Source: Eubacteriales Family XIII. Incertae Sedis bacterium (GTDB lineage: Bacteria; Bacillota; Clostridia; Peptostreptococcales; Anaerovoracaceae). From it: DNA of 64,000 nt. The notes under the pieces are model-generated. The model had not been told where the DNA came from. It did not search any database and saw only the letters and a program-made list of their open reading frames with translations. The number at the start of each line of letters is the position of its first letter. Position 1 is the stretch's first letter. The stretch lies in the NCBI GenBank assembly GCA_031256875.1, contig JAIRPQ010000065.1:2264-66263 (forward strand). The letters are read 5' to 3'. Shown piece by piece: positions 42,847 to 61,697 of the stretch. The position numbers and the translations under genes were made by a program.

Positions 42847-43599
42847 CTATGGCCTGCATATGGACTTCAGCACATTTAGTTCTTCTTCGGTGGGCGGCTT
42901 CGATTCTACGGCTGCGGACACGTCTATCTCAAAGCCCGTGTTCGCTATGACATCGGACGGAGATGCGCCGCAGCTGTATTCGGCGAGGTACATTCGCCTG
43001 TCCGCGCCAAAGCGCATAATGCCGAGGTCTGTTACGACAGCCTGCGGCCCTTTGGACGGATTCAGCCCCGCGCGGGCGCGGCCGTCCTCGCCGTCCACCC
43101 ATCCGGAGCTTGTTACATAGTCCAGCCTTTCTACAAACCTGCGCTTCTCATGCTTCATTACTATAACGGTGTCGCAGTGCGTCGCGATACCGTTCGCGCC
43201 GCCCGATCCCGTAAACCGCGTGCGCGGGCTTCTGTAATCCCCTATCGAGGTCGCGTTCAGATTGCCGTAGGGGTCGATCTGCGCCCCGCCGAGAAACCCC
43301 GCCGTTATCACGCCGCGCTTCGCGTAGAGCGCGCTGAACCCCACATATCGGTACTGCGGCCACAGCACCGATGCCTTTCGGCAGATGCGGAGGTCGCTGA
43401 CGCTCGTCGGCACTTCTTCGGGTTCGCTTTCGAATATCCCGCTCTCAAAAATGAACCGCGCCTCTGCCGCGTGCGTATTCTTCGCAAGCGCGGCGCCTAT
43501 CAGAGGCAGCCCCGTACCGATGATATACGTGCCGCCATTCTGTATCTGCCTGGAAATGGCTACTGCCATCAACTGCGCTGAACTGTGTTTTGTTCCCAT
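42847..43599 (-). CDS. gctB: Glutaconate CoA-transferase subunit B
   Basis: 250 aa. IGTGLPLIGAALAK, GGAQIDPYGNLNATSIGDY, RFTGSGGANGIATHCDTVIVMKHEKRRF closely follow my recollection of Acidaminococcus GctB. An alternative start is ATG 43569. Confidence 0.88.
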   Translation of the reverse strand: MGTKHSSAQLMAVAISRQIQNGGTYIIGTGLPLIGAALAKNTHAAEARFIFESGIFESEPEEVPTSVSDLRICRKASVLWPQYRYVGFSALYAKRGVITAGFLGGAQIDPYGNLNATSIGDYRSPRTRFTGSGGANGIATHCDTVIVMKHEKRRFVERLDYVTSSGWVDGEDGRARAGLNPSKGPQAVVTDLGIMRFGADRRMYLAEYSCGASPSDVIANTGFEIDVSAAVESKPPTEEELNVLKSICRP

Positions 43600-44495
43600 A
43601 TTTTCAAATATTCGCTATGTGTCCCCGCGGCAAAAACTTTCTCCGCCATGAATTTTTCAAAGCCCTGCTTCGTGCGGCTCGCCTTGTCGTATTCCACGAA
43701 AAAGCGGCTGTCGTAATCATATCTGCCGAAGCACTGGGACGGGTGCGCCCCCCTGGGCATGTGAACCACCGCGTCCACGCAGAGCCCCGTTATCGTATTC
43801 CTTTCGGGCTCGGCCTTCAGTTGTTCGCTGTCCACAAGCTCCTCGCACGACACTATGGTGTGGCGCGACGCGACGGCGATGTCCACGTCCTGAAACTCCG
43901 ACCCGTCTATGCGGCAGATACCGTCCGCGCTGGCCTGTTGTACGTGGAGGAGCGCAACATCTATGCGCGGCGTAGGTACGAGACATAGCTCGCTTTCCGG
44001 ATCGAACGGGTCTTTCGCCATGACGTATTTCTTCGGCGGAAGCTTGGGATGCTTCGCCCTCTCCTCCTCGCTGATTCCCCATTTCGCGAGCATGTCCGAC
44101 CCTATCATATTCTTCACGGGGATGTAGCTGAGCCCGAGAGCCGCTCCGTGTAACGCCAGCGTCTGAACGTCGAGGGAATAGTCCTCGAACATTATGCTCC
44201 CCGAAATATCCCCATCTGACTCCACCGCGTTGCGAAAGCGGTTGCAGACCATCGAAAATCCGGAATTGGCGATATACGAAACCATCAGCGCGGCGACGCA
44301 CCCCGCACCGATGAGCATGTCGATATCCCCGCCCGACGGCCCCCCTTCGATATACAGCCCCCTTCGTTTCTGACGAATTATTTCATAAACAAGACCGTAA
44401 GGGCGACGGTTCGTGACGAAACCTCCGATGGCCACACTGTCGCCATCGTGGACGAACCGCTCTACCGCCTCCCTTACTGTCATTGTTTTATTCAT
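43569..44495 (-). CDS. gctA: Glutaconate CoA-transferase subunit A
   Basis: 308 aa, family-I CoA-transferase alpha subunit: MTVREAVERFVHDGDSVAIGGF... Confidence 0.85.
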   Translation of the reverse strand: MNKTMTVREAVERFVHDGDSVAIGGFVTNRRPYGLVYEIIRQKRRGLYIEGGPSGGDIDMLIGAGCVAALMVSYIANSGFSMVCNRFRNAVESDGDISGSIMFEDYSLDVQTLALHGAALGLSYIPVKNMIGSDMLAKWGISEEERAKHPKLPPKKYVMAKDPFDPESELCLVPTPRIDVALLHVQQASADGICRIDGSEFQDVDIAVASRHTIVSCEELVDSEQLKAEPERNTITGLCVDAVVHMPRGAHPSQCFGRYDYDSRFFVEYDKASRTKQGFEKFMAEKVFAAGTHSEYLKIWEQNTVQRS

Positions 44496-44499
44496 ACAT

Positions 44500-44808
44500 T
44501 TACACTACCGCTTCATTGTATTTCTCGTAAATGGTTTTGATGGCCGTGATGATGGCCTTTCTGGTGCTGCCATACCACTGCTTTTCAAACCTGCGTATCA
44601 GCGCTTCGATGCCGCCGTTCAGATTGTACCCGTTGATAAGTTCCGACACGAACTTCCTCGACAGGTTGGTTGAGAGCGAGCAGTCCGATTCAAGAATGAC
44701 GCCGCTTTTGAGGTCAACGGTAACGACTATCACCAAAGTATCATATAGTTTGCTCGACGTGATGTTCGACGGCAGCTTCGCATATCCTGACAACAATACT
44801 GTATTCAT
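44500..44808 (-). CDS. DUF3870-like small protein
   Basis: 102 aa. SGYAKLPSNITSSKLYDTLVIVVTVDLKSGVILESDCSLST... matches my recollection of the DUF3870 pattern. Its stop is 4 nt before the gctA ATG. Confidence 0.6.
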   Translation of the reverse strand: MNTVLLSGYAKLPSNITSSKLYDTLVIVVTVDLKSGVILESDCSLSTNLSRKFVSELINGYNLNGGIEALIRRFEKQWYGSTRKAIITAIKTIYEKYNEAVV

Positions 44809-44859
44809 GGCATTCTCCTTTATGTCTTTTCCACAAGCTAGCTAATTCAGTAACATCCA

Positions 44860-44888
44860 TTATTACCGCATTGCTGCCACCGTGTCAA
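44860..44888 (-). promoter_or_regulatory. Candidate internal sigma-70 promoter for DUF3870-gctAB
   Basis: On the minus strand: TTGACA (44883-44888), a 17-nt spacer, and TAATAA(T) (44859-44865). Confidence 0.5.
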
Positions 44889-44993: not shown

Positions 44994-46472
44994 TTACGCC
45001 GCCCTGTCAGGTTCAGGGGCGGGATTCGGGTCCGAGCCAGATTCTGGTTTTGCGCCCGGCGTCGACTTGTTTTTACCAAAACGCGCCAAGCAGAATAGAC
45101 CAACGCCGATGACGGAAACCACCACGAACATTACCAGGCCGATTGACCCGATGAACGACGGGAGCGATGGTATGAACTCCGTTACCGCGAGGAACGAACA
45201 GAACACGATCGAAAACCACACGAGTGCCGTCCCGCCAGGCACCTTGAACGGCCTTTCTATATCAGGCGATTGCCGGCGTGAAGCCAGCACGCAGATAGAG
45301 ACTATAATCCAGCAGATGAGTATCGAAATCGAACCTACCGCTGTGATGGGATCGATGACACCGAGGCCCAGCATGAGACCTATGAACGAGCAGACGCACG
45401 TGAAGATGACCGCGTTAATCGGCACGTTGTTCTTGTTCATCTTGCTCAGCGACTGCGCCAGCAGACCGCGCTCACCCATCGCCGCGAGAAGTCTCGGCAG
45501 ACCGTACAGGCAGGCGTTCAGCGTTGTCAACAGACCCATGATGACCGAGATGAGCATGATGGTATAGAAGGTCTGCGCCAAGCCATGGTTGTCGGGGAAC
45601 AGCGCGAAGAACAGATTCGGTGCGGCTGGTGTCTCATAGCTGACGAAGCTCTGCCACGGAATGGCGAAGCCGCAGGCGAGTATCTGAAGCATATAGAACA
45701 GTCCCGCCGCGATGGTGCAGACGATAACGCCCTTTCCGACCACCTTGCTGTCGGCATTCGGGTCAGCGTCGGCGATGCCCTGCGGTATCAGATCCATGCC
45801 CGCCATGAAGAACGGCAGCAGCACTATGCATGTAAGGATTCCATCGAAAATGGATTTGTGGCTGTAGCCGTCCACCGTGGTATACAGAGGCTGCAGGTTG
45901 CTGAAATCACCCATCGTGAACATTATAATAGCGGAAAGCAATCCGAGGATGACGAGACCGGCTGTAGCTATGTTTTGGAATCTGGATACAGCCTTTACGC
46001 CTCTGACATTGATGGCCATAAAGATGACGACCAGCAAAACTCCGATAATAATAGATGTGGTGGTAACGTCAACGCCGTTCAGCGACCAGAGGGCGACACC
46101 TGTCGGCAGCGATGGGATGAGCAGCTGTATTATTTCCGTCAGGAACAGCACTTCCCACAAGATGATGCCGAGCCAGCAGACGATGTAGAACCAGCCGCCG
46201 ATGAACGCAATGGGCTTGTTCAGTAGGCGGTTGGCGTAGGCCATAGCCCCGCCGGGCTCTTTGATGATAGATGACATTTCCGCATAGCACAGAGCCATTG
46301 GAATCAGTCCGGCTGTAGCGATAGCGTAGCCGACGACGGCGGGTATCGGGCCGCCGGCTCTCGCGATCCATCCGTTGACATACAGCGCCCACCCGATACC
46401 TACGATGGCACCGAGGCCGATTGTAATGAAGTCGAATGTACCAAGTCCGTTCTTTTTCTTTGAAATGCTCAT
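44994..46472 (-). CDS. APC-superfamily amino acid/polyamine permease
   Basis: About 492 aa with 12 predicted TM helices and a GTFDFITIGLGAIVGIGW type N-terminus. The start is set at ATG 46472 (AAGGAGAAG RBS). Confidence 0.85.
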   Translation of the reverse strand: MSISKKKNGLGTFDFITIGLGAIVGIGWALYVNGWIARAGGPIPAVVGYAIATAGLIPMALCYAEMSSIIKEPGGAMAYANRLLNKPIAFIGGWFYIVCWLGIILWEVLFLTEIIQLLIPSLPTGVALWSLNGVDVTTTSIIIGVLLVVIFMAINVRGVKAVSRFQNIATAGLVILGLLSAIIMFTMGDFSNLQPLYTTVDGYSHKSIFDGILTCIVLLPFFMAGMDLIPQGIADADPNADSKVVGKGVIVCTIAAGLFYMLQILACGFAIPWQSFVSYETPAAPNLFFALFPDNHGLAQTFYTIMLISVIMGLLTTLNACLYGLPRLLAAMGERGLLAQSLSKMNKNNVPINAVIFTCVCSFIGLMLGLGVIDPITAVGSISILICWIIVSICVLASRRQSPDIERPFKVPGGTALVWFSIVFCSFLAVTEFIPSLPSFIGSIGLVMFVVVSVIGVGLFCLARFGKNKSTPGAKPESGSDPNPAPEPDRAA

Positions 46473-46631
46473 GACTTCTCCTTTTACTCCTAATTTAATG
46501 TATAATAGCAATAACGAGTAGCAATGTTTGGCTGAACGTGTTCGCCAAGCATGGTTGCTTGATACTGGGCCTTTCCTCGTTTCGGAAAAGAGTTGGCGGG
46601 GAAAGGTCTTGATTTTTGTTTAGCCGACCGG

Positions 46632-47717
46632 CTAAATGCTGTTCACGTAATGCTCCATCGGCTTCAAGAGATATTGCCCGTTCGCCATCCTGTCGGTGGA
46701 CACATAACCCGACGGACTGTCTATCAGCACCGGTATGCGGTTCACGATGTCGGCGCATGTCAGCTCCACGGTAGCCGGATTGTCTACCTTGATGGCCGTG
46801 TATGGCTCGCCGTAGAGACTCCAGTCGTTCGTGTCGATTTCGCCGGGCGCGTAGACCTTGCCTATAGATTCCGTTACCAGCGTGACACCCTCGGCTGTCT
46901 TGGTCGTGACGACAGAACCCATGCCTGTAACATTTCCCGCCTTGATGGTCATGCCCAAGGTTTTCGAATGCAAGTCCTCGGAATGCGTCTTGGGTATATT
47001 CTTTTGTGTCTGGGAAATAATAGTCAGACCGAGCCTGCTGGCCAGCCAGCCGTTCTGCGTCCACATATATGACGGAATCCATTCGCCTTTCTCGATTAGC
47101 TCCTGTATCATCTCATAAGTGTAGTCGTTGTAACCTCCGAGCTTTTCATAGAACTCCTCCAGCGTGAGTCCGGCGCCATGCCCTTCAGCGAGCGCGATGC
47201 CGTAGTCCTCGACGTTATAGCTGGAGCTGCCCTTGATTTTGTCAATGCTGTTCATCGATGCCGCTATGGTAGTAATCAGCACGCCCCAATAGAGGTCGGG
47301 ATAGCCGCTTCCGGCCAGGGTGCAGCCACCGGCTTTCGCGAGCGCGTCCAGCTCTTCAGCGAGCTTGGGCGCGGAGTTCCACGGAAAGAGACTCTCCTCG
47401 CATGTCGAAATCGCGTTCACGCCGTTTTTCGCGCAGATGGAGAACGGTTCGAATATTTCGTCCACCGTGCTGCGCGTCGCCACGATGCATACATCGGGCT
47501 TCGTGTCCGCGATGACCTTCGCCATGTCCGCCGAGTCCGAGACCTTGATGCCCGTAGGCTCGGAAATGCCCATGATGTCGCTGATATCTTTGCCGATGGC
47601 GGCATCGCTCATGTCGAACGCCGCGACTGGCTCCGCGCCGTGTTCGATAGCGTAGCGCATGAGGTATTTGCCCATCCTGCCCGTGCCGTATTGCGCGAAT
47701 TTTACTTTGCGTTTCAT
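46632..47717 (-). CDS. DapB-like NAD(P)-dependent oxidoreductase, 2,4-diaminopentanoate-dehydrogenase / native amine dehydrogenase family (tentative)
   Basis: 361 aa with an N-terminal Rossmann VKFAQYGTGRMGKY. Overall length and layout resemble Ord/AmDH-family enzymes as I recall them; this has not been verified by search. Confidence 0.5.
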   Translation of the reverse strand: MKRKVKFAQYGTGRMGKYLMRYAIEHGAEPVAAFDMSDAAIGKDISDIMGISEPTGIKVSDSADMAKVIADTKPDVCIVATRSTVDEIFEPFSICAKNGVNAISTCEESLFPWNSAPKLAEELDALAKAGGCTLAGSGYPDLYWGVLITTIAASMNSIDKIKGSSSYNVEDYGIALAEGHGAGLTLEEFYEKLGGYNDYTYEMIQELIEKGEWIPSYMWTQNGWLASRLGLTIISQTQKNIPKTHSEDLHSKTLGMTIKAGNVTGMGSVVTTKTAEGVTLVTESIGKVYAPGEIDTNDWSLYGEPYTAIKVDNPATVELTCADIVNRIPVLIDSPSGYVSTDRMANGQYLLKPMEHYVNSI

Positions 47718-47767: not shown

Positions 47768-49510
47768 TTACCCTTTGATGATGCGTGGGGTCAGCAGATG
47801 GTGAACCGCGCAGAACGATTCGGGGTTCTGGTAATACGAACCGACGAACGCCTTGCAGTAGTCACGCAGCTTCGGCATATCAACAACCTCGTCCACCATG
47901 CCTCTGATGGCCGCGAACTTCGGCCTGGACGATTCGTCGTAGTGCTTGATGATCTCGTTCATCTTCGCGATAGTCTCATCCAGCGGCTTGCCGGAATCCT
48001 TGTCCTTCACGAGCCTGCGGGCATAGGTAGCTGCCGCCGCCGTCTCGCCGTGCATGACGTAGATCTCCGTCGCGCCCGTGCCGAGCGTGAACGCATTGTT
48101 GTTGTTCGCCTGCGGTCCGCCTAGCACGTAGTGCGCGGCTGCCGAGCCTTTGCGGAGGACTATGGTCATCATCGGATTGTTCGACTGCTCGATGGAGTAG
48201 ATGAGCGACATGCCCAGCCCGAGCATTTCCGCCTGCTCCGCAACGTCGCCAACGTCGATGCCCGACGTATCCTGAAGCCAGATGATGGGTGTGCGGTCGC
48301 GACCACAAGTGGTCACAAATTCGCTCATCTTGATGAGACCCTCGCGATAGAGCTTGCCGCCCACGCCCGGGTAGTCCGCGTATTTCGGATAGTCGGCACC
48401 GAGGCCGCCCGAATTGTTCGCCACAAAGCCGCAGAGGAAACCGTCGATCTTCGCAAGTCCGCAGTAGACTTCCGGACCGTAGTCGGGCCTGAACTCCATA
48501 TGCTCGCTGTTATCGAAGATACGCGCCAGCACTTCCTTCATGTCGTATGTCCTGCGCGGGTTCATCGGAACTAGGCTGTAGAGATCCTCGGCGGGATACT
48601 TGGGCTCCGCGGGTTCGGCGACGCGGAAGAATTTCGGGTCATACGCGGGAAGCGTATCCATGTAAGCCTTGATGTCGTCCAGCACTTCTTCCTCGGTGTC
48701 GCAGACGTCGCGGATGAAGCCTGTGCTTCCGTGGTGAATCTCAACACGCCCCGGAGGGGTGGCCTTGAGCTTCTTCGTGTTCTCAATGAGTCCTTCGGCC
48801 ACTTCGTCGTCAATGAATCCCTTCGGCTTCATGCCGCTGACGATGCCCGCGCCGCCGACCGACATATTCGCGTCTTTGTGCGCGATGAGTATCGACGGGC
48901 TGATGGAGTGGTAGCCACCGCCGGCGGGGTTCGTCCCGTAGATGCCTACGATGATAGGCACGCCGAGCTTCTGCAGTTCGGCATGGCGGAAGAACGGAGC
49001 GCCGCTGCCGCGCCTGTCGGGGAAGATGTTCTCATGCTCGCTGAGCTTCACGCCGCTGCAATTCAGCACCCATACGAGCGGCAGTTTCAGACGCTTTGCG
49101 ATGTCCGTGACGCGCAGCACGTTGTCCGCCTGCCCCGAGAGCCACGCACCCGCGATGATCTTGTTGTTCGACGCGATGATGATGGCCCATTTGCCGTTGA
49201 TCTTGCCAAGGCCGTCGATGACGTTGGACGTTCCCTCGGCGTTCTCGGCGGGGTCGTAGATGGTGTGCAGCGGGCACCATGTACCCGGGTCGATAAGGTA
49301 TTCGATGCGCTGCCACGCAGTCCACTCGCCCTTTTCGTTCATCTTCTCATCGGGCTTTCCCGAGGTCTTGACGCGCTCTACCTCGGCCGCGATGATAGCT
49401 TCCTGTTCTTTCAGTTCTTCGGCATTCTTCGCCAGCTCGCGTTTTAGCTCGCTGCCGATGCCGGGCATTTCCGCAAAATACGGGTGAAGCGGATAACCAT
49501 AATCTGACAT
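47768..49510 (-). CDS. gcdA: Glutaconyl-CoA decarboxylase alpha subunit (carboxyltransferase)
   Basis: 580 aa. GIYGTNPAGGGYHSISP, LNCSGVK and the C-terminal YQNPESFCAVHHLLTPRIIKG track the Acidaminococcus GcdA sequence as I recall it. Confidence 0.9.
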   Translation of the reverse strand: MSDYGYPLHPYFAEMPGIGSELKRELAKNAEELKEQEAIIAAEVERVKTSGKPDEKMNEKGEWTAWQRIEYLIDPGTWCPLHTIYDPAENAEGTSNVIDGLGKINGKWAIIIASNNKIIAGAWLSGQADNVLRVTDIAKRLKLPLVWVLNCSGVKLSEHENIFPDRRGSGAPFFRHAELQKLGVPIIVGIYGTNPAGGGYHSISPSILIAHKDANMSVGGAGIVSGMKPKGFIDDEVAEGLIENTKKLKATPPGRVEIHHGSTGFIRDVCDTEEEVLDDIKAYMDTLPAYDPKFFRVAEPAEPKYPAEDLYSLVPMNPRRTYDMKEVLARIFDNSEHMEFRPDYGPEVYCGLAKIDGFLCGFVANNSGGLGADYPKYADYPGVGGKLYREGLIKMSEFVTTCGRDRTPIIWLQDTSGIDVGDVAEQAEMLGLGMSLIYSIEQSNNPMMTIVLRKGSAAAHYVLGGPQANNNNAFTLGTGATEIYVMHGETAAAATYARRLVKDKDSGKPLDETIAKMNEIIKHYDESSRPKFAAIRGMVDEVVDMPKLRDYCKAFVGSYYQNPESFCAVHHLLTPRIIKG

Positions 49511-49534: not shown

Positions 49535-50743
49535 CTACTGCATGCTTCCAACTATTGTTATGTAAAGCCCTGTGAGTATCGCTGTGGTGATGACTCCGCA
49601 TATAGACGCGCCCATGGCGTACTGCAAAATCATCACGCGCTTGTTGACCTTCTGGGCCTCCTTCTGCGCTATCTTGGCCGTAGTGGGTATACACGACACA
49701 CCGGCCACGCCTATGACTGGGTTGAACTTCTTGCCTGTGAACCGGTACACGACGTACCCGCCAATCATGCCGCCTACGGCCGCAAGCGCGAGCGCTATGA
49801 TGCCGAGCACCAGCAGCACGAGAATCTTCGGGTTCAGCAGCGTGCTCGCTTCGCACAACACTCCGAGCAGCAGCCCGAGGAAGAACGTCGCGCCGTAGAG
49901 CAGCACATCTTCAAGAAGATTCATATACTTGAACACACCTGATTCCTTGATGGCGTTTCCGAGGAAGAAGCTCAGGAAAAGCGGTGCGGCTACGGGGAAT
50001 AGCAGGCAGAGCGCCGTTCCCGCTACCATGTCGAATATAATCTTCTCCATCGGCTTGATGTCGTCGATTCTCCTCGACGGCTTCACGGCTATACCGCGCA
50101 GATGCTTCGGTATCACCAGCTTAATGAGGTACGGATACCCCGCGTAGCACAGGCTGAGATACAGATACGCGACTATCGTGATTGGCACGAATAAGTCCTT
50201 TGCGAGCATGAGCGACGAGTACAGAACCATCGGTCCGTCGGCGCCGCCCACGAGGGCTATAGCGGCCGCGTCACCGTAGTCCAGACCCATAGCGTGCGCT
50301 ATCGGGAATGTGGCAATCGAGCCCAGCTCCGCGAACATCGCTATGAACATGCTCGTGAACGGGAATTTCAGCAGGTTGCCTACATCCGATATGGTGCCCA
50401 GCCCCATGAATACGAGACAGGCGATCAGGCCGTTGCTGAATGTGAGCGAGTATACGGGCTGCAGGAAATCTATCTGCATGATTTCCATAAGGCCGTTCGT
50501 GTCGCTGACCAGCGGGTCCATGAATATCGTGCCTATCTTGCCCGCGTCGAGGAACAGCACGCCCGCGTTGACCGCCGCCATGCCGAAGCCCATCGGTATC
50601 ATGATGAGCGGCTCAAGCGTTTTCTTGACGCCGAGGTACACGAGGAACAGTCCCGCTACGATGAGCGCGATGCGCCCTATCGCGATAGCCGGCTCCTGAG
50701 CGAAGAGGGTGCCTATACCTTGAAAGAGTTGTACCATATTCAT
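49535..50743 (-). CDS. gcdB: Na+-translocating decarboxylase beta subunit (GcdB/OadB/MmdB family)
   Basis: 402-aa polytopic membrane protein. Its start overlaps the stop of the upstream small anchor subunit (ATGA). Confidence 0.88.
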   Translation of the reverse strand: MNMVQLFQGIGTLFAQEPAIAIGRIALIVAGLFLVYLGVKKTLEPLIMIPMGFGMAAVNAGVLFLDAGKIGTIFMDPLVSDTNGLMEIMQIDFLQPVYSLTFSNGLIACLVFMGLGTISDVGNLLKFPFTSMFIAMFAELGSIATFPIAHAMGLDYGDAAAIALVGGADGPMVLYSSLMLAKDLFVPITIVAYLYLSLCYAGYPYLIKLVIPKHLRGIAVKPSRRIDDIKPMEKIIFDMVAGTALCLLFPVAAPLFLSFFLGNAIKESGVFKYMNLLEDVLLYGATFFLGLLLGVLCEASTLLNPKILVLLVLGIIALALAAVGGMIGGYVVYRFTGKKFNPVIGVAGVSCIPTTAKIAQKEAQKVNKRVMILQYAMGASICGVITTAILTGLYITIVGSMQ

Positions 50744-51081
50744 GCCGCACCCTCCTTCCCGCTCTCGCCGTTGCCATTGGTGCCGGCTTCGGGCTTGCCC
50801 TCGGCTGCTTCGGCCTTGGCCGTGCTGCCTGCGTCGGGCTCGCCTTTGCCTTCTGATTTGGTTTCGCTGTCAGCGCTTTTCGGCGCCTCCGGCGAAGCCT
50901 TCTTGCCTTCGTCTTTCTTTTCGGCACTGCCGCCGGCCTGCCCGTCCTGCGTTTTAGCTGCCGCCTGCTTGTTGCCGCGCCTGATAATCAACAGTATGAT
51001 TTTGATGAGGAATGCCATGCCCAAGGCTATGACGAACCCCAGAAAATACACCTGTAAGGCGATGCTTATTGATTCATCCAT
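50740..51081 (-). CDS. gcdD: Decarboxylase membrane-anchor subunit (OadG/GcdD-like)
   Basis: 113 aa with one N-terminal TM helix (IALQVYFLGFVIALGMAFLIKIILLII) and a Lys/Ala/Glu/Gly-rich tail. GGAG RBS. Confidence 0.7.
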   Translation of the reverse strand: MDESISIALQVYFLGFVIALGMAFLIKIILLIIRRGNKQAAAKTQDGQAGGSAEKKDEGKKASPEAPKSADSETKSEGKGEPDAGSTAKAEAAEGKPEAGTNGNGESGKEGAA

Positions 51082-51132: not shown

Positions 51133-51231
51133 CTACATGATTTCTTTGCGAATCATTATCGCGAATATCGCTATCACCGCGACGATAACCGCCACGCATA
51201 TGATAATAGTGGGTGCGTCCCATGTAAACAT
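51133..51231 (-). CDS. 32-aa single-TM peptide, unannotated (possible extra decarboxylase/Etf-associated subunit)
   Basis: Hand-translated: MFTWDAPTIIICVAVIVAVIAIFAIMIRKEIM. A strong RBS AAGGAG lies 8 nt upstream and overlaps the etfA stop region. It sits between etfA and gcdD. Confidence 0.5.
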   Translation of the reverse strand: MFTWDAPTIIICVAVIVAVIAIFAIMIRKEIM

Positions 51232-54225: not shown

Positions 54226-54294
54226 GAAACCATCACGTTGCGGGCGCGGCCTGTGGCTGACCGCCGAACCGCGCCCGCCAGGAGGTGATGTTTC
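54226..54294 (-). other. Large imperfect inverted repeat / stem-loop between the two acyl-CoA dehydrogenase genes
   Basis: The inner 10-bp GC stem is GCGGGCGCGG (54240-54249) with CCGCGCCCGC (54269-54278). The outer arms are GAAACCATCAC (54226-54236) with GTGATGTTTC (54285-54294). No U-run follows it on the minus strand. Confidence 0.5.
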
Positions 54295-55451
54295 TAACGA
54301 TTTGGCTGGTAGCCAAGCTCGATGCCCGCTACGATGGTGGTGTGGATGTTCGACGTTCCTTCAAGCGTTTCGAACTGCTTGGCGTCGCGCAGCCAGCGGC
54401 CGCACGGATACTCATCGGAATAGCCGTAGGAGCCGTATACCTTCATCGCGATATTGGCAGCGTTGACCGCCGCTTTGCACGAATACAGCTTCGCCATCGA
54501 AGTCTGCTGCTGGCTCGGCATCTTGTTCTGCTTCAGCCATGCCGCGCGGTACACGAGCTGGAGGGCTGCGTCGTCCTCGAGCTTCATCTCGGCGATCTGT
54601 GCCTGTACGAGCTGGAACTTGCCGATGGGCTGGCCAAACTGTGTGCGCTCATTCGCGTATGCAACAGAGCCTTCCAGAGCTGCCGCGGACAGAGCCGCCG
54701 CGCCCGTCGCGCAACCCATGCGCGTGTTGTTCAGCATCCACATGCAGATGGGGAAGCCTTTGTTCACAGGACCGAGCAAATTCTCTTTCGGAACCTGCGC
54801 GTTCTCGAATACCAGCTCCGAGGTGGGTGCCGACCACATACCGACCTTCTTGTTGATAGGAATGCGCTCGATGCCTTCGGTGTTGTTGTAGTCGATGATG
54901 AAGCAGGACAGTCCCTTGGGGCCGCCGCCTTCTTCCGTGCAGACATAGACCAGACCGATGTCGCTCGTGTGACCGCCCGATATCCACATCTTCGAGCCGT
55001 TCAGCACATAATGGCTACCCTTGTCCTCGGCGAACATCTTCATGCTGCCGACATCCGAGCCCGAGTTCGCTTCCGTCATCGCGAAGCTGCCGACGGCCTC
55101 ACCGCTGAGCAGCGGCGGGATGAACTTTTTCTTCTGCTCGTCCGTGCCGTATTCGAGGATGGTCATCGCCGGCCCCCAGCAGTTGCCGCTGATGGAGAGT
55201 CTCCATGATGTGTGTACCTTGGCTATCTCATAGAGCGCCGTTACAGCTTCCATCCAGCCCATGCCGTTCCCGCCGTATTCTTCGGGCATGCTCCATCCGA
55301 GCAGACCCATTTCGCCCATCTTGCTCAGTATCTCGCGGCGGTAATAATGGTTTTCCTCGTCCTGCTCGACGTATGGCGCGATTTCCTTCTCAGCGAAGGA
55401 CTTCGCCATTTCCTGTACCATTCTTTGTTCTTCGGTAAATCCAAAATCCAT
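54294..55451 (-). CDS. Acyl-CoA dehydrogenase, glutaryl-CoA-dehydrogenase-like
   Basis: 385 aa. The C-terminal catalytic region FETLEGTSNIHTTIVAG resembles the GCDH signature (YEGTHDIHALILG) more than the SCAD signature. Confidence 0.65.
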   Translation of the reverse strand: MDFGFTEEQRMVQEMAKSFAEKEIAPYVEQDEENHYYRREILSKMGEMGLLGWSMPEEYGGNGMGWMEAVTALYEIAKVHTSWRLSISGNCWGPAMTILEYGTDEQKKKFIPPLLSGEAVGSFAMTEANSGSDVGSMKMFAEDKGSHYVLNGSKMWISGGHTSDIGLVYVCTEEGGGPKGLSCFIIDYNNTEGIERIPINKKVGMWSAPTSELVFENAQVPKENLLGPVNKGFPICMWMLNNTRMGCATGAAALSAAALEGSVAYANERTQFGQPIGKFQLVQAQIAEMKLEDDAALQLVYRAAWLKQNKMPSQQQTSMAKLYSCKAAVNAANIAMKVYGSYGYSDEYPCGRWLRDAKQFETLEGTSNIHTTIVAGIELGYQPNR

Positions 55452-55526: not shown

Positions 55527-55736
55527 CTATTCGACGGTCGCGAGAACCTGATCTTCCTCGACGGCATCGCCTTCCTTCACGAGAATCTCTTTGACCGTGC
55601 CGTTCTCGCCATAGATGACGGTTTCCATCTTCATGGCTTCGACGATGATGACTTCGTCATCTTCGGTTATCGCATCGCCAACCTTGATGTTTATCTCCTG
55701 CACCTTGCCCGAAATCGTACTGATAAGATCTGCCAT
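55527..55736 (-). CDS. gcdC: Biotin carboxyl carrier subunit of the decarboxylase (GcdC-like, minimal)
   Basis: 69-aa biotinyl domain with the EAMKME motif. AAGGAGG RBS. Confidence 0.85.
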   Translation of the reverse strand: MADLISTISGKVQEINIKVGDAITEDDEVIIVEAMKMETVIYGENGTVKEILVKEGDAVEEDQVLATVE

Positions 55737-55892: not shown

Positions 55893-57266
55893 TTACTCGG
55901 CCCACAGCTCGTCGTCCGAAAGCTTCAGCCCCGGCGCATCAGGTATCTCATACGCTATGCGGCTGATGTTGATGAGGTGGGTGAACCACAGATTTTCGCT
56001 GAGGCTGTTGTTGCCCCATGTGCCGCAGCCGAGCGTACCGGTCGGGTTGAGACCGTTCGCCAGCGTTCCGCCAAGGCTGTTCGAGCCAATCTGATTGACC
56101 GAGAAACGGGAAACCTTGATTTTGATTGCGGCCTGCTCCACATGCTCCTTCGTGTTCGAGTGGATGACGCAGCTGTGACCCGTGCCTTCGAACTCGATGT
56201 TCGCGGCGGCCTTGTCCACTGCCTCGTCCCATTCGTCGTACACATACATCGTGAGGACAGGGAAAAGCTTCTCCTTTGCGAGCGGCTCGTCCGCGCCGGT
56301 TTTCTCCACGCGCACTACGATGAGCTTCGTGTCCTCGGGAATATCGATGCCCGCGCGCTTCGCGATGTCAACAGGCTTGATGCCAACGACATCCTTTTCC
56401 ATCGCGCCGCCCGGGAAAAGCGTCTTGCGGAAGGTTTCGACCTCTGCATCGTCGCTCACGATATAAGCGCCCTGCTTTTTGAACTCCTCGGCGACCGCGT
56501 CGGCTTTCGCGCTCGGCACGAATATGGACTGCTCGCATGTACACAGCACACCGTTGTCGTAGATGCGACCCGTGATGGTCTTTGTTACGGCATCGGCGAT
56601 ATCAGCGTCGGTGTCGTAGAGGCTCTGGACGTTGCCCTGGCCTACGCCATACGCAGGCTTGCCGCTCGAATAGGCAGCCTTCACCATGCCGGGACCGCCC
56701 GTGGATATGCAGGCGTCCGTCTGCTGCATGATGAGACCCGAAACCTCTATCGAAGCTTCGTCCACAATCTGAATCAGGTCGATGGGCGCGCCGGCCGCCA
56801 CGAGAGCTTCCCTCATGACATCGACGGTCGCCTTGCCTGTCTTGACTCCCTTGGGGTGCGGGCACACGATAATCGCGTTGCCGCCCTTCAGGGCTATCAT
56901 TGCGTTGTGGATGGGCGTCATTACAGGGTTGGTCACGGGCGTAATCGCGCCGATGACCCCGATGGGCTTGGCTACTTCAACTAAACCTTCGTCCTCGATA
57001 TACCTGATGACGCCGCGGCTCGGCTTGCCTTTGAGCTTGTACCATGTGACTTTGGGCTTGCCCTGATTCTTTTTGATTTTGTCTTCGACATTGCCCATGC
57101 CTGTCTCCTCGACGGCGAGTTCCGCCAACGGGACTGCCTTGTCGTAAACGGCTTTGCCTATAGCCCTTACCGCTTTATCCACATCCGCCTGCGAGTAAGT
57201 TTCGAACTCGCTCTGCGCCTTGCGCGCTTTTGCGATTAGCTCAGCTACATGTTCCTGTGCATTCAT
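55893..57266 (-). CDS. CoA-acylating semialdehyde dehydrogenase (SucD-like)
   Basis: 457 aa, collinear with my recollection of C. kluyveri SucD: AKPIGVIGAITPVTNPVMTP, the catalytic Cys region DNGVLCTCEQS, and GCGTWGNNSLSENL. Confidence 0.8.
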   Translation of the reverse strand: MNAQEHVAELIAKARKAQSEFETYSQADVDKAVRAIGKAVYDKAVPLAELAVEETGMGNVEDKIKKNQGKPKVTWYKLKGKPSRGVIRYIEDEGLVEVAKPIGVIGAITPVTNPVMTPIHNAMIALKGGNAIIVCPHPKGVKTGKATVDVMREALVAAGAPIDLIQIVDEASIEVSGLIMQQTDACISTGGPGMVKAAYSSGKPAYGVGQGNVQSLYDTDADIADAVTKTITGRIYDNGVLCTCEQSIFVPSAKADAVAEEFKKQGAYIVSDDAEVETFRKTLFPGGAMEKDVVGIKPVDIAKRAGIDIPEDTKLIVVRVEKTGADEPLAKEKLFPVLTMYVYDEWDEAVDKAAANIEFEGTGHSCVIHSNTKEHVEQAAIKIKVSRFSVNQIGSNSLGGTLANGLNPTGTLGCGTWGNNSLSENLWFTHLINISRIAYEIPDAPGLKLSDDELWAE

Positions 57267-57309: not shown

Positions 57310-58518
57310 TTACAGCGCCTCTATCGAAGCCTTCAGGATTTCAACCGCCTTGTCACAGTCCTCCTTAGTCGCGATAAGCGGAGGTACCATGCGTACGATT
57401 TTCGCTCCGATGGCTGTGGTGAGAAGATTGCGATCCAAGGCGTTGTGCTTGACATCAACAGCCCTGTCCTCGTCCAGCTCGATGGCTACGAGCAGACCGC
57501 GACCCCTGGATTCCTTCACGTGCGGCAGTGTGGCGAGCTTCTCCATGAAGTAAGCTCCTACCTCCGCAGCATTGTCGCCGAGGTTCCTGTCTATCAGCTC
57601 TTTCAGCTCGGCAATCGCAGCCGCGCACGCGACGGGGTTGCCGCCGTATGTGGTGCCGTGCGAACCGGGCGTGAACGCGCTTGCGACCTTTTCCGTCGCG
57701 CAGATGGCGCCGATGGGCATGCCGCCGCCGATGGCCTTCGCCATCGAAACGATGTCGGGCTTGATGCCGTAGTGCATATAGCCCATGGCCTTGCCTGTCC
57801 TGTACCAACCGGTCTGAATCTCGTCCATGAGGAGCAGCAGACCCTTGTCCTTGCAGAGCTGCTGGATGCCGTCCATGAACTCCTGCGTCGCTACATTGAC
57901 GCCGCCCTCGCCCTGGATAGGCTCGAGCATGATGGCGATGGTGTCGTCCGTGACCTTCGCCGCGAAATCGTCTACATTGTTGAACTCGGCATAGCTGAAC
58001 CCAGGCAGCATCGGCTTGAACCCGAGCTGGCAAGCGTTGTCAGGCTGACCCGTCGCGGACATCGCGCCGTAGGTCCTGCCGTGGAAGCTGTTCTTCGCTG
58101 TGATGATGTGATATTTGTTCTCGCCGAAATTGTCCGTGCCGTATTTGCGCGCGAGCTTGATCATGGCTTCGTTCGACTCCGTACCGGAGCTCTGGAAGAA
58201 AATCTTGTCCATGCCGATGGTCTCGCAAACGAGCTTTGCGAGAACAGCCTGCGGGATGGAGTACGGATAGTTGAACACGTGCATTACATCCTGCACCTGG
58301 TCGATTACCGCATCCACAACCTTCTTGTTGCAGCTGCCTGCGCTGTTAACGGCTATGCCGCCGTAGAAATCCAAATACGCATTGCCGTCCTGGTCATACA
58401 GGTACATGCCCTCCGCTTTGGCCGCGAGGAAAGGGAACCTCTCATATGTCTCAATCATATACTTCTCAGTATATTTTTTGACATCCTCAAACGTTAATCC
58501 TACATCTTTTAACTGCAT
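57310..58518 (-). CDS. Class-III aminotransferase (ArgD/GabT/5-aminovalerate aminotransferase-like)
   Basis: About 402 aa: YLDFYGGIAVNSAGSCN, DEIQTGWYRTGK and the PLP-lysine region DIVSMAKAIGGG. The start is set at ATG 58518 (AAGGAGG RBS). Confidence 0.85.
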   Translation of the reverse strand: MQLKDVGLTFEDVKKYTEKYMIETYERFPFLAAKAEGMYLYDQDGNAYLDFYGGIAVNSAGSCNKKVVDAVIDQVQDVMHVFNYPYSIPQAVLAKLVCETIGMDKIFFQSSGTESNEAMIKLARKYGTDNFGENKYHIITAKNSFHGRTYGAMSATGQPDNACQLGFKPMLPGFSYAEFNNVDDFAAKVTDDTIAIMLEPIQGEGGVNVATQEFMDGIQQLCKDKGLLLLMDEIQTGWYRTGKAMGYMHYGIKPDIVSMAKAIGGGMPIGAICATEKVASAFTPGSHGTTYGGNPVACAAAIAELKELIDRNLGDNAAEVGAYFMEKLATLPHVKESRGRGLLVAIELDEDRAVDVKHNALDRNLLTTAIGAKIVRMVPPLIATKEDCDKAVEILKASIEAL

Positions 58519-58560
58519 TTCGTCCTCCTTTAAGTAAGTAAATAAATAACTGTAGCGGCA

Positions 58561-58593
58561 CATTGCCGGTAACGCAGTGCACTACCGGCAATG
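58561..58593 (-). terminator. 11-bp perfect stem-loop between the two aminotransferase genes
   Basis: CATTGCCGGTA-N11-TACCGGCAATG. On the minus strand it is followed by a T-rich stretch (GTTATTTATTTACTT). Confidence 0.5.
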
Positions 58594-58603
58594 GATGAAC
58601 CTA

Positions 58604-59959
58604 TTACCAACCGTGCTTTTCGTATACGACGCCGCACGACTCGTCTATAACCTGGAGCGCCCTCTCGATATGCTCGTCCGAAATCATGAGCGGTGGCTCG
58701 ATGCGGATCGTCTTGGCGTTAATCAGGCTGCCGGACACCAGCACCTTGCGGTTGAACATCTCGTAAACGACCTCGTAGCCGATGTCGCCATCGATGAACT
58801 CCATCGCGAGGAACAGTCCGCGCCCGCGCACGTCCGTCATGAGCTTCGGATATTTCGCCTTGATTTTTTCAAGCCCTTCCATGAAGATGCCGCCCGCGCG
58901 CTTGGCCTTCCCTGGCAAATCCTCTTTCAAGATGACGTTCAGCGCCGCGATGCCGGCCGCCGTCGCGGTGGGGCTGCCGCCCGTAGTCGTGCTGTGGAGC
59001 AGCGGGTCGGGGAACATGCCTTTGAAGGCTTCTTCCGTGCAGATGCAGGCGCTGAGCGGCATGACGCCGCCGCCGATGGCCTTCGCGCAGCAGATGATGT
59101 CGGGGGCGACATCGTAGTAGTCTACGGCAAAGAGCGTACCCGTGCGGCCCATGCCCGACTGCACTTCGTCGGCCACCATCATGATGCCGTATTTGTCGCA
59201 GAGCTTGCGGATGCCCGGGATGAAGTCGTCCGGCGGGATATTGATGCCGCCCTCGCCCTGTATCGTCTCAAAGACGATGGCCGCGGGAAGCTCGCCCGTA
59301 AATTCCATGACCTCGAGCATCTTCGTCAGCATGTCTAAATCGCCGAATTTGCAGTGGCGAGTGCCCTGCAGAAGCGGCAGGAACGGCCCTCTGAAATGAG
59401 CCTTGGACGTAAGCGACAGAGCGCCCGCGGTCTTTCCGTGGAAGTCGCCCTCGAAGGCTATGAAGAAATGACGACCCGTCGCGAGCGCGGACATCTTCAG
59501 CGCCGACTCGATGGCTTCAGTGCCCGAGCTCGTAAAGAACGTGTACTGCAAATCCCCCGGCGATACGTCCGCGAGGATGCGAGCCAGCAGCGCCCTGTTG
59601 GAGTCCACGAGCTCCGCGCTCGACAGCGGCTGCTTGGATATCTGATCCGTGACCGCCTTCACGATGGTGGGGTGGCGATGCCCGCAGTTGTAAACGCCGA
59701 AGCCGCCTAAGCAGTCGATGTATTCGCGACCCTGCAGATCCATGAACGTGTCGCCGTTCGCGCTCCACTCCATGGCCATGTCGTCTTCGCCCGCGGCTTT
59801 CCTGTATTCCAAAAACCCGGGGTTGATATGTGTACCGTAATTGTGACGAATCTCCTCTATGAAGCTCTTTTGCTCGTCACCCTCCATGCCCTTCGCCTCT
59901 ATCCATTTTAGTGATTTTTCGGTGTAATCAAGCACATCTTCAAAACTTTTCCTTGGCAT
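58604..59959 (-). CDS. Class-III aminotransferase, putrescine/cadaverine aminotransferase (YgjG/PatA)-like
   Basis: 451 aa. YIDCLGGFGVYNCGHRHP, DEVQSGMGRTG, DIICCAKAIGGG and the C-terminal NAKTIRIEPPL resemble E. coli PatA as I recall it. Confidence 0.75.
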   Translation of the reverse strand: MPRKSFEDVLDYTEKSLKWIEAKGMEGDEQKSFIEEIRHNYGTHINPGFLEYRKAAGEDDMAMEWSANGDTFMDLQGREYIDCLGGFGVYNCGHRHPTIVKAVTDQISKQPLSSAELVDSNRALLARILADVSPGDLQYTFFTSSGTEAIESALKMSALATGRHFFIAFEGDFHGKTAGALSLTSKAHFRGPFLPLLQGTRHCKFGDLDMLTKMLEVMEFTGELPAAIVFETIQGEGGINIPPDDFIPGIRKLCDKYGIMMVADEVQSGMGRTGTLFAVDYYDVAPDIICCAKAIGGGVMPLSACICTEEAFKGMFPDPLLHSTTTGGSPTATAAGIAALNVILKEDLPGKAKRAGGIFMEGLEKIKAKYPKLMTDVRGRGLFLAMEFIDGDIGYEVVYEMFNRKVLVSGSLINAKTIRIEPPLMISDEHIERALQVIDESCGVVYEKHGW

Positions 59960-60056
59960 TTTTCTCTCTCCTTATAAATACTGTAATTAAGTGAAAACAT
60001 TTCTCCTGGGATAACTTATTTTCCGCTTTAATTATTTGGTCAATTTTCGAGTGTGC

Positions 60057-61697
60057 CTATTCATCGTTTTCCGCGTCGTCCGGTGGGAGACCCATCCCTG
60101 CTGCTTCCGCCGCAGCGAGGGCTTCGCCCGCGTAGCGCTTCTCGCCGAAAAGCCGGCTGAGCACGAACACCACCACTACGAACACCGCCAGCGTAGCGAG
60201 CAGCGGGATAATCGGGTTTTTCATCATGCCCGAGATGATAAATCCCACGCACGCGCAAGCCGCGCATGTCATCGAGTATGGTATCTGCGTCTTGATGTGG
60301 TCGGTATGCCTGATGTTGGACGCGGCGGATGACAGTATCGCCGTGTCAGCAAGGGGCGAGCAGTGGTTGCCGAACCCGCCGCCGCCGATGACCGCCGTGA
60401 TAGCCGCCAGCGGGGTGATGTCCATAGCGAACGCGATAGGTATGGCTATCGGCATCATGATGGCGTATGTCCCCCATGTCGCGCCTGTAGCGAATGTCAT
60501 CGCGCACGAAACCACGAAGATTATTACCGGTACGAGGAACGCGGGCACGTTCTCCTGGAAAAGCTGCGCCGCGTAGTTGGCCGTGCCCAGCTCGTCTCCA
60601 ACGCCGCCGATGGACCACGCGAGGGCTAGCAGCAAAATGACGAACAGCATGGACTTGGCGCCGACCACGAACGCCGAAAGCGACTCGGTTATGCTGGACA
60701 GCTTTTTGACCGCGTAGAACACTATCGCGAATACGACGGATATGATGACCGCGTACGTCAGCGCCAGCATGCCGTCCGTGTTGTTGAATGCGTCCAGCAG
60801 GTCGAAGCTCTCGAAGAACCCGCCTGTGTAGAGCATGAAGGTGAAGGCGAGAACTACCAGCAGCACGATGGGCGCGAGCAGGTCAATGGCCTTGCCGCCC
60901 TTCGCGACCTCGATGCTGGAGTAATCGTCCTCGTCCGCGTCCCCGCCGCTGAACGTCCTGTCGCAGAGCTGGCCGGTTTCGCGCGTACGCCGCTCGGCCT
61001 TGGCCATCGGGCCGAAGTCCATCTTGAACAGGATGACCATGATGACCATGATGATGGACAGCCAAGCGTAATAGTTGTAGGGAATGCTGCTGACGAAGGT
61101 CTGGAAAGCGTTGCCTTCCACGCCGGCAGACTTGTATGATTCGTTGATGAGCGAGCAGACGAAAGCGATCCAGCTCGACAGCGGAACGATGAGGCAGATG
61201 CCCACGGCCGTACTGTCTATAATGTAAGAAAGCTTTTCGCGCGAGACTTTGTACGAGTCCGTAATCTTCCGCATCACGGCCCCGTTCGTGAGGGCGTTAA
61301 AATAATCGTCGAAGAATATGATGAGTCCTATTCCCCACACCGTAGCCTCCGCACCTTTGCGGCTCTTTATCTTGTTGGAGAGCAGCTTACCGAAAGCATC
61401 CGACCCGCCCGACCTGACCATGAGCCCGATGAGCCCGCCAAGCATAGTAACAATAATAAGAACTTGAATATTCCACGGGTCTGTGAGCGCACCGGGGATG
61501 ACCATGTCGCCTGTCTCATCGTACGTGCCGGCAAGCAGTTCTATCAGCTTGTTCAGCGCGCCGAGCGGATTCCAGTCGCATATGATAAGGCCGCCTGTGA
61601 AAACGCCGATAAACAGCGACAACAGGACTTCCTTTGTAATAATTGCAAGCACGATAGTCAAAATGGGTGGCACCAATGACCAAACTCCTGCATCCAT
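60057..61697 (-). CDS. NhaC-family Na+/H+ antiporter-type transporter
   Basis: 546-aa polytopic protein with GGAGGAG RBS. It is the first gene of the 19-kb same-strand cluster. Confidence 0.8.
   Translation of the reverse strand: MDAGVWSLVPPILTIVLAIITKEVLLSLFIGVFTGGLIICDWNPLGALNKLIELLAGTYDETGDMVIPGALTDPWNIQVLIIVTMLGGLIGLMVRSGGSDAFGKLLSNKIKSRKGAEATVWGIGLIIFFDDYFNALTNGAVMRKITDSYKVSREKLSYIIDSTAVGICLIVPLSSWIAFVCSLINESYKSAGVEGNAFQTFVSSIPYNYYAWLSIIMVIMVILFKMDFGPMAKAERRTRETGQLCDRTFSGGDADEDDYSSIEVAKGGKAIDLLAPIVLLVVLAFTFMLYTGGFFESFDLLDAFNNTDGMLALTYAVIISVVFAIVFYAVKKLSSITESLSAFVVGAKSMLFVILLLALAWSIGGVGDELGTANYAAQLFQENVPAFLVPVIIFVVSCAMTFATGATWGTYAIMMPIAIPIAFAMDITPLAAITAVIGGGGFGNHCSPLADTAILSSAASNIRHTDHIKTQIPYSMTCAACACVGFIISGMMKNPIIPLLATLAVFVVVVFVLSRLFGEKRYAGEALAAAEAAGMGLPPDDAENDE

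Follow-up and report, generated by a model that had tools for sequence, protein, structure and literature searches.

A conserved Anaerovoracaceae gene cluster combining a glutaryl-CoA to butyryl-CoA module with a proposed entry for 5-aminovalerate

Guts, sediments and digesters are rich in two C5 compounds, 5-aminovalerate, a product of Stickland proline reduction, and cadaverine, which arises from lysine by decarboxylation. The one anaerobic sink known for either that is understood genetically is the 5-hydroxyvalerate route of Clostridium viride. A cadaverine pathway was reportedly outlined from enzyme activities by Roeder & Schink in 2009, in a syntrophic coculture whose degrading member was related to Clostridium aminobutyricum. 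Matthies & Schink are reported to have described the conversion of glutarate to butyrate and CO2 through a Na+-dependent glutaconyl-CoA decarboxylase. Here we analyse a gene cluster in a 64-kb stretch of DNA from a Family XIII bacterium of the Anaerovoracaceae, an anaerobe of gut or sediment (positions 2,264 to 66,263 of contig JAIRPQ010000065.1, assembly GCA_031256875.1; hereafter the window). The sequence suggests that the cluster is probably a catabolic operon with butyrate and CO2 as fermentation products, made from C5 omega-amino compounds and from glutarate.

The cluster runs along the minus strand from 61697 to 42847, where the listing of open reading frames (ORFs) in the window gives 18 ORFs in unbroken series. 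Their spacing ranges from -31 nucleotides (nt), the overlap of gctA and gctB, to 185 nt before the DUF3870 gene, and the chance of 18 genes sharing one strand is about 2^-17. An initial annotation made from the letters of the same DNA had described 18 consecutive minus-strand genes with short gaps or overlaps, and with no gap above 185 nt the ORF listing bears this out. Families were called with Pfam, NCBIfam and a sequence search against solved structures of the PDB, which reproduced all the assignments of that annotation.

The downstream half of the cluster, comprising glutaryl-CoA dehydrogenase (GDH), glutaconyl-CoA decarboxylase (Gcd), Bcd/Etf and the Gct transferase, had been proposed to lead from glutaryl-CoA to butyryl-CoA. 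Active-site residues and a linkage of the genes for GDH, the biotinyl carrier (BCCP) and GcdA that is kept across two phyla support this proposal. The genes of this half, with lengths in amino acids (aa), are the following.

55527..55736, minus strand: BCCP, a bare 69-aa domain with an EAMKME motif (Pfam, NCBIfam), taking the place of GcdC with neither its anchor nor its Ala/Pro linker
54294..55451, minus strand: GDH of the non-decarboxylating type (3MPI, 321 bits; Arg87, Glu367)
53055..54200, minus strand: butyryl-CoA dehydrogenase, Bcd (5OL2_C, Bcd in the Bcd-Etf complex from C. difficile, 480 bits; 4L1F, 479 bits)
52247..53023, minus strand: EtfB, electron-transfer flavoprotein small subunit (PF01012)
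51244..52233, minus strand: EtfA, electron-transfer flavoprotein large subunit (PF01012 and PF00766)
51133..51231, minus strand: 32-aa single-helix membrane peptide, a probable small decarboxylase subunit, with a conserved position in 14 of 14 related loci and no family match
50740..51081, minus strand: GcdD-like membrane anchor of 113 aa, an N-terminal helix with a low-complexity Ala/Glu/Lys/Gly tail; no Pfam match
49535..50743, minus strand: GcdB, Na+-translocating carboxybiotin decarboxylase beta subunit (PF03977, 354 bits; TIGR01109, 203 bits, cutoff 191)
47768..49510, minus strand: GcdA, glutaconyl-CoA:biotin carboxyltransferase (3GF3, 752 bits; 1PIX, 739 bits)
43569..44495, minus strand: GctA, alpha subunit of a two-subunit, family-I glutaconate/glutarate CoA-transferase (1POI_A, 302 bits)
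42847..43599, minus strand: GctB, CoA-transferase beta subunit (1POI_B, 279 bits), with the catalytic Glu of the ESG motif kept

The GDH-like protein shows three ACAD domains in Pfam and scores 321 bits against the Desulfococcus GDH 3MPI versus 290 bits against a Bcd. Its Arg87 and Glu367 (3MPI numbering; Glu367 is the catalytic Glu) are invariant in 200 homologues, and position 87 is Gly both in the Bcd of the window and in 4L1F, the Bcd of Acidaminococcus fermentans. Wischgoll et al. 2010 reportedly found that this Arg is the ligand of the glutaconyl carboxylate, and that a Tyr to Val exchange separates the non-decarboxylating from the decarboxylating GDHs. At position 366, just before the catalytic Glu, the GDH of the window carries Leu, 3MPI Val and Bcd Tyr (Tyr-Glu in the Bcd of the window); Leu is found throughout the Firmicutes GDH clade and Val in the deltaproteobacterial clade. 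Close homologues of the enzyme carry the JGI label 'glutaryl-CoA dehydrogenase (non-decarboxylating)'. The product would be glutaconyl-CoA formed without release of CO2, for which the linkage to gcdA is indirect support.

To place the cluster among its relatives we scanned genomes with the GDH-like protein, obtained 76 loci (cited below by L numbers where they have to be told apart) and mapped all 18 window proteins onto them by tblastn. The SucD-like protein of the cluster had been tried as synteny marker; an exact-match look-up with it came back empty and its homologues (63-74% identity) lie in unrelated contexts, so GDH was used instead. The genes for BCCP, GDH and GcdA, usually with GcdB, are linked in Anaerovoracaceae, Desulfosporosinus, Syntrophomonadaceae and Oscillospiraceae (GDH 77-86% identical; about 80% in metagenome-assembled genomes of Syntrophomonadaceae) and also in Syntrophobacterales/Desulfacinum (GDH 52-56% identical). 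BCCP lies directly upstream of the GDH gene in every locus (L005-L080), those of Desulfosporosinus and Syntrophobacterales included, and four loci (L007, L009, L017 and L038) repeat the BCCP-GDH pair almost identically 7 kb further downstream, where the second copy immediately precedes gcdA. Such a linkage is the signature to be expected if glutaryl-CoA is converted through glutaconyl-CoA to crotonyl-CoA. In about 25 loci from Anaerovoracaceae, Family XIII and unclassified Eubacteriales the order is BCCP-GDH-Bcd-EtfB-EtfA-(DUF6125)-two micro-ORFs-GcdB-(second BCCP-GDH)-GcdA. The neighbourhood comparison, a check put forward with the initial annotation, finds the core kept in about 25 loci and the aminotransferase and SucD-like genes beside it in 9-11. 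The cultured Sinanaerobacter chloroacetimidivorans (L007) has the order APC-SucD-BCCP-GDH-Bcd-Etf-GcdB-GcdA, and L017 has two genes that the window lacks at this place, for a MerR regulator and for a CoA-transferase of the acetyl-CoA-hydrolase family. In most of the related clusters a DUF6125 gene of about 250 aa stands between etfA and the micro-ORFs, as in L017 (14377-15144) and at equivalent positions in L006, L007, L010, L011, L019, L025, L037, L038 and L047; it has no counterpart in the window.

The decarboxylase itself appears to be a variant build. GcdA matches both solved GcdA structures over its full length and the next family at only 157 bits; the carboxyltransferase was also considered as a methylmalonyl-CoA decarboxylase and rejected, with 141 bits (cutoff 999) against 752 bits to GcdA. 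A canonical GcdC consists of an N-terminal anchor, an Ala/Pro linker and a C-terminal biotinyl domain with an MKM motif, and a canonical GcdD of an N-terminal membrane helix, a linker and a C-terminal GcdA-binding region (PMC7145394). In the window the biotinyl domain is encoded alone and its ORF cannot extend upstream. Neither the 32-aa peptide nor the GcdD-like ORF, both listed in the initial annotation, found a family match, and the latter, a helix with a low-complexity tail in the window, has no OAD_gamma match in Pfam. Both nevertheless correspond to conserved single-helix peptides in all 14 related loci, which lie within L006-L047: the first, of 32 aa (up to 43 aa) and ending ...IR(R/K)ELK, keeps its position, and the N-terminal 45 aa of the second (M.ESI.IALE.YF.GFVIA...) are conserved directly upstream of gcdB. 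The second ORF measures only 43-53 aa in the relatives and reaches 113 aa in the window through a 65-aa low-complexity tail that is unique to it. Because sequence and position of both micro-ORFs are kept in 14 of 14 loci we regard them as real genes despite the lack of a family match, and their products (51133-51231 and 50740-51081) probably belong to the decarboxylase as small subunits that had gone unrecognised.

Upstream of this core lie three genes that could feed it.

58604..59959, minus strand: PatA-like class-III aminotransferase, near putrescine/cadaverine aminotransferase (NF008570, 572 bits, cutoff 612)
57310..58563, minus strand: ArgD/ornithine/GABA-type class-III aminotransferase, proposed to act on 5-aminovalerate (TIGR00707, 434 bits, cutoff 410)
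55893..57266, minus strand: SucD-like CoA-acylating semialdehyde dehydrogenase, the proposed source of glutaryl-CoA from glutarate semialdehyde (8CEI, 415 bits)

The SucD-like gene (56-74% identity) adjoins the BCCP-GDH core in 11 loci and an ArgD-like aminotransferase gene (66-73% identity) stands beside it in nine related loci. Both adjoin the core in L006, L010, L013, L014, L017, L019, L025 and L032, the SucD-like gene without the aminotransferase in L007, L026 and L037, and in L013 the two are embedded between gcdB and BCCP-GDH-gcdA. A PatA-like gene (71-74% identity) is present in five loci (L017, L019, L025, L032 and L037). The closest solved relative of the SucD-like enzyme is the succinyl-CoA reductase SucD of C. 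kluyveri (8CEI, 415 bits, versus 332 for AdhE). In that enzyme Lys70 and Ser243 are the ligands of the distal carboxylate and Cys242 and His364 are catalytic (PMC10249356). Alignment to SucD shows Cys242, His364, Lys66 and Lys70 kept and Ser243 replaced by Thr, and with Lys70 kept and Thr in place of Ser243 the substrate very probably carries a terminal carboxylate. These residues are also identical in all members of the clade, whatever the gene context, so that chain length (C4 versus C5) cannot be read from them and the active-site comparison was discarded as a discriminator. The feed that the initial annotation proposed, from C5 omega-amine through glutarate semialdehyde to glutaryl-CoA, is supported in part: synteny in 9-11 loci makes it the most economical reading, and the sequences fit C4 and C5 alike. 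Elsewhere, a common gut species represented by 55 index blocks has a SucD-like homologue (63% identity; L003/L004, 2023-7010) together with genes for GntR, a thioesterase, a phosphotransacylase, an acyl kinase and an SSF transporter, an arrangement that suggests a module from aldehyde through acyl-CoA to ATP.

In the pathway that we propose, 5-aminovalerate would be imported by the NhaC-family transporter, the APC transporter or both, and the ArgD-like aminotransferase, whose substrate we infer to be 5-aminovalerate, would convert it to glutarate semialdehyde. The SucD-like enzyme would use CoA and NAD(P)+ to form glutaryl-CoA, storing the energy of aldehyde oxidation as a thioester; through this acylating step the butyryl-CoA thioester would become a net gain open to ATP synthesis. 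The Arg87-bearing GDH would oxidize glutaryl-CoA to glutaconyl-CoA with electrons passing to EtfAB, GcdA would move the carboxyl group onto the 69-aa biotin carrier, and GcdB with the two micro-membrane peptides would decarboxylate the carboxybiotin while pumping Na+ out, leaving crotonyl-CoA. Bcd and EtfAB would reduce crotonyl-CoA to butyryl-CoA, plausibly and most simply with the electrons from glutaryl-CoA. GctAB would then transfer CoA from butyryl-CoA to glutarate or acetate, freeing butyrate and admitting free or external glutarate, and the PatA-like enzyme may widen the range to cadaverine. What the sequences show directly is the identity of the families, the active-site residues of the GDH and of the SucD-like enzyme, and the synteny kept among loci; how long the substrate chain is, which way the reactions run, how electrons are routed and what the transporters do are our inferences. 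A bolder form of the proposal, which we put forward tentatively and would not bet on, is that this Anaerovoracaceae operon for the fermentation of 5-aminovalerate/cadaverine to butyrate may bring together three new elements: a CoA-acylating glutarate-semialdehyde dehydrogenase, a new specificity in the SucD clade that would save one thioester for ATP synthesis; a direct hand-over of electrons from GDH to Bcd through one shared Etf; and a stripped-down Gcd in which GcdA and GcdB are complemented by no more than a 69-aa biotin domain and a pair of micro-membrane peptides.

Several observations weigh against the proposed pathway. Its balance (5-aminovalerate + 2 H2O -> butyrate + CO2 + NH3 + 4[H]) would leave two NADH equivalents per 5-aminovalerate that have no assigned outlet in the cluster. 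They would have to go to H2 or to further crotonyl-CoA, which would fit the nearby Rnf genes and cadaverine degradation, reported to be syntrophic. Leu366 of GDH agrees with the sense of the Tyr to Val rule and not with its letter, as it is not the characterised Val, and the NCBIfam model GlutCoADH_Des (NF045552) gives the protein 384 bits where the cutoff is 470, although it is the top-scoring model. EtfB is about equally similar to the bifurcating 5OL2_B (138 bits) and the non-bifurcating 1EFP_B (132 bits), and the nucleotide-site motif of the Etf reads DDASGQV; neither feature assigns it to the bifurcating type, which has a second FAD where AMP would otherwise be bound, or to the non-bifurcating one. 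E. coli PatA takes cadaverine besides putrescine, and both PatA/PatD and GabT/GabD use C4 and C5 substrates about equally (PMC6265302). With such promiscuity homology cannot decide the substrate, and gene context is the sole guide to a C5 specificity of the SucD-like enzyme and the aminotransferases. The cadaverine branch would in addition need a 5-aminopentanal dehydrogenase and none was found in the cluster or the window, where the only other Aldedh gene is proA; the diamine branch of the initial annotation is not supported, and a PatA-like gene occurs in only five related loci.

The strongest alternative, which we nevertheless think improbable, is that the locus is a composite in which the glutaryl-CoA to butyryl-CoA module, fed by free glutarate via GctAB or by another source of glutaryl-CoA, lies beside an independent C4 polyamine module leading from putrescine through 4-aminobutanal, 4-aminobutyrate (GABA) and succinate semialdehyde to succinyl-CoA. 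PatA, ArgD/GabT and SucD are canonical C4 enzymes, Lys70 of succinyl-CoA reductase is conserved in the SucD-like enzyme, many genomes have the GDH/Gcd module with no aminotransferases beside it, and the family takes its type from Anaerovorax, a genus first isolated for its fermentation of putrescine. However, in 9-11 loci the module keeps the aminotransferase and SucD-like genes as its neighbours, in L013 it even encloses them, and the composite would be just as much without an aminoaldehyde dehydrogenase. It would also end at succinyl-CoA: neither a consumer of it nor a maker of 4-hydroxybutyrate is present in the cluster or window, and the enzymes of a C4 continuation (4-hydroxybutyrate dehydrogenase, AbfD, methylmalonyl-CoA mutase) were found in neither.

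The distribution of GctAB bears on a second alternative, which we rate lower still. Glutarate would be the main substrate here, in a decarboxylative fermentation of the Pelospora type, with the SucD-like enzyme and the aminotransferases working reductively from glutaryl-CoA through glutarate semialdehyde to 5-aminovalerate or related products as a sink for redox equivalents or nitrogen. The presence of GctAB and a dicarboxylate-type logic agree with it, as does the physiologically reductive role of C. kluyveri SucD (PMC10249356). GctAB is found at the core in L011 and L047; GctA homologues (63-69% identity) occur in these GDH/Gcd clusters and also beside SucD-like genes in L002 and L084, and a scan of metagenomes with GctA returned four loci, one of them with a SucD-GctAB trio. 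Outside the GDH cluster this trio occurs in L002 (1935-5091) with an SSF transporter, an Fe-alcohol dehydrogenase and a 465-aa protein without Pfam match, and in L084 (7607-10731) with a sigma-54 activator, the TctABC carboxylate transporter (in the order TctBAC) and a saccharopine-dehydrogenase-like gene; the two may belong to another dicarboxylate/semialdehyde pathway. The trios indicate that enzymes of this SucD clade have Gct-type transferases as partners in acting on a dicarboxyl-CoA, possibly in the reductive direction, and the TctABC neighbour in L084 counts in favour of this alternative. Most related clusters, however, lack GctAB and carry an acetyl-CoA-hydrolase-family CoA-transferase, their aminotransferases are accompanied by amino-acid-type permeases and not by carboxylate transporters, and making 5-aminovalerate would bring no obvious energetic benefit.

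The remaining four genes of the cluster encode transporters and proteins outside the proposed core.

60057..61697, minus strand: NhaC-family membrane transporter, candidate importer or exchanger of the substrate (PF03553, 203 bits)
46632..47717, minus strand: native amine dehydrogenase (nat-AmDH) homologue (6IAU, 295 bits; 6IAQ, 211 bits; full length)
44994..46511, minus strand: APC-family amino-acid permease (PF13520 and PF00324)
44500..44808, minus strand: DUF3870 protein (PF12986, 89 bits)

The NhaC-family transporter has weak NCBIfam matches to Tet(35) and to the ArcD arginine/ornithine antiporter, and homologues (65-68% identity) stand beside the cluster in only two loci, L017 and L032, in divergent orientation. 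The nat-AmDH homologue scores 118 bits against the NCBIfam model Ord (cutoff 400). No counterpart of this homologue, of the APC permease of the window or of DUF3870 was found by tblastn in any of the 76 related loci, which indicates that the three are not core parts; the permease is only 27-36% identical to the APC permeases of the related clusters. Homologues of the nat-AmDH protein (62-74% identity) are common in anaerobes as stand-alone genes in varied contexts, with an ammonium transporter beside one in L083 and an AdoMet decarboxylase in L081, and these contexts were too heterogeneous to serve as a functional clue. It is equally unlikely that the cluster degrades some different amine or amino acid, such as lysine or an intermediate derived from it, through the nat-AmDH homologue and the APC permease and reaches glutaryl-CoA partly by genes elsewhere: the two genes do lie inside the operon, and no natural substrates are known for the nat-AmDH family, but neither these genes nor DUF3870 occur in any related cluster, the homologues elsewhere are stand-alone and in unrelated contexts, and no lysine decarboxylase, aminomutase or 2-oxoadipate enzyme was found in the window.

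Two promoter-like sites are the best sigma-70-like sites on the strand of the cluster.

62104..62132, minus strand: TTGACA-17-TATTAT, 11 of 12 consensus matches, by pattern match only, about 400 nt upstream of the first gene
44859..44888, minus strand: TTGACA-18-AATAAT, 11 of 12 consensus matches, by pattern match only, in the 185-nt gap before DUF3870-gctAB

No convincing intrinsic terminator was found between the two (62132-62104 and 44888-44859), and DUF3870-gctAB could form a second transcription unit starting from the site at 44859..44888. The leader of about 400 nt between the first site and the first gene (61698-62104, minus strand) contains a hairpin followed by a T-run; a riboswitch was considered there and rejected, as Rfam gave no match even at E<=1, the fold z-score was -1.06 and the leader is not conserved in related loci. 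In the rest of the window, hgdCAB, abfD and lysine-aminomutase genes are missing among the larger ORFs, which upholds for these 64 kb of genome the earlier remark that the known routes into glutaconyl-CoA or crotonyl-CoA are absent. Rnf (17.8-22.9 kb) and the AceTr/SatP channel (42162-42767; Pfam, NCBIfam) lie where they had been placed, and what ties them to the cluster is the shared window. Directly upstream of the channel, at 37750-41866 on the minus strand, an acyl-CoA synthetase gene (best match MbcS/acetate-CoA ligase, below cutoff) stands beside a putative ABC exporter pair; the synthetase may belong to short-chain acid handling, and in relatives these genes are not linked to the cluster. 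Four consecutive ORFs without Pfam match (444, 272, 321 and 295 aa) occupy 23502-27883 on the minus strand, the first with a C-terminal FILTED surface-protein domain (NCBIfam).

The enzyme families of the cluster are all known, and the logic of glutaryl-CoA, glutaconyl-CoA and a Na+ pump is established for benzoate degraders and glutarate fermenters. What appears to be new is that known modules are joined, in a combination we did not find reported, within an operon conserved family-wide in Anaerovoracaceae. The initial annotation had called this genetic basis undescribed, and the full-text literature, from which most subscription journals were outside scope, agrees: within that scope we found no gene assignment for a pathway from C5 amines through glutaryl-CoA to butyrate and no account of a glutarate-semialdehyde dehydrogenase of the CoA-acylating kind. 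For 5-aminovalerate, a review from 2021 on how anaerobes conserve energy gives 5-hydroxyvalerate as the only route (PMC8473912), and four entries into bacterial butyrate formation are usually counted (PMC3994512). The glutaryl-CoA route would add a fifth, its candidate genes would let the pathway be sought in metagenomes, and they would explain the syntrophic character of cadaverine degradation. The acylating glutarate-semialdehyde dehydrogenase, the Firmicutes-type GDH and the minimal Gcd complex offer targets for enzymology, the cultured carrier Sinanaerobacter chloroacetimidivorans makes testing practical and, if the bolder form of the proposal is true, the nat-AmDH homologue would gain a first physiological context in this window.

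Compared with described systems, the cluster comes close to the coculture of Roeder & Schink, in which a C. aminobutyricum relative close to the Family XIII group is reported to have degraded a C5 amine anaerobically by way of 5-aminovalerate; there too a glutaryl/glutaconyl-CoA stage preceded the formation of crotonyl-CoA, acetate and butyrate. The pathway of that coculture is known only as enzyme activities, whereas the cluster of the window has an acylating dehydrogenase and no aminoaldehyde dehydrogenase. Pelospora glutarica and strain WoGl3 also take glutarate through glutaryl-CoA, glutaconyl-CoA and crotonyl-CoA to butyrate with an energy-conserving decarboxylase; no amine entry route is known to have been described there. 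The GDH of Desulfococcus multivorans (3MPI) and Syntrophus belongs to the same family, shares the Arg that binds the carboxylate and likewise has no aromatic residue just ahead of the catalytic Glu, and in obligate anaerobes with GDH and Gcd the GDH gene is likewise linked to gcdA and the biotin carrier. There, however, glutaryl-CoA comes from benzoyl-CoA degradation whereas in the window the feed would be aminotransferases and the SucD-like enzyme, and relative to 3MPI the protein has Leu366 instead of Val, moderate similarity (321 bits) and a score below the NCBIfam cutoff.

The C. kluyveri and C. difficile SucD enzymes have the same fold, catalytic Cys242 and Lys66/Lys70 for the distal carboxylate; throughout the clade of the window enzyme Ser243-Ser244 is Thr-Cys and Thr365/Thr395 is Ser, and the substrate that we propose has one carbon more, with the reaction running in the oxidative direction. 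Two class-III aminotransferases for a diamine and an omega-amino acid also occur in the PatA-PatD-GabT-GabD pathway of E. coli and the DavT-DavD-GcdH pathway of Pseudomonas (PMC6265302), but these aerobic or facultative pathways use non-acylating semialdehyde dehydrogenases that yield free glutarate, continue with a decarboxylating GcdH or with CsiD, and have no Na+ pump and no Bcd/Etf. The 2-hydroxyglutarate pathway of Acidaminococcus fermentans and Clostridium symbiosum shares GctAB, GcdA/B, Bcd-EtfAB and Rnf with the window (PMC8473912). It differs in that here no more than a 69-aa domain serves as biotin carrier and a helix of 43-53 aa stands for GcdD in related loci, and since the window has neither 2-hydroxyglutarate dehydrogenase nor HgdCAB, glutaconyl-CoA would arise in our proposal from the dehydrogenation of glutaryl-CoA.

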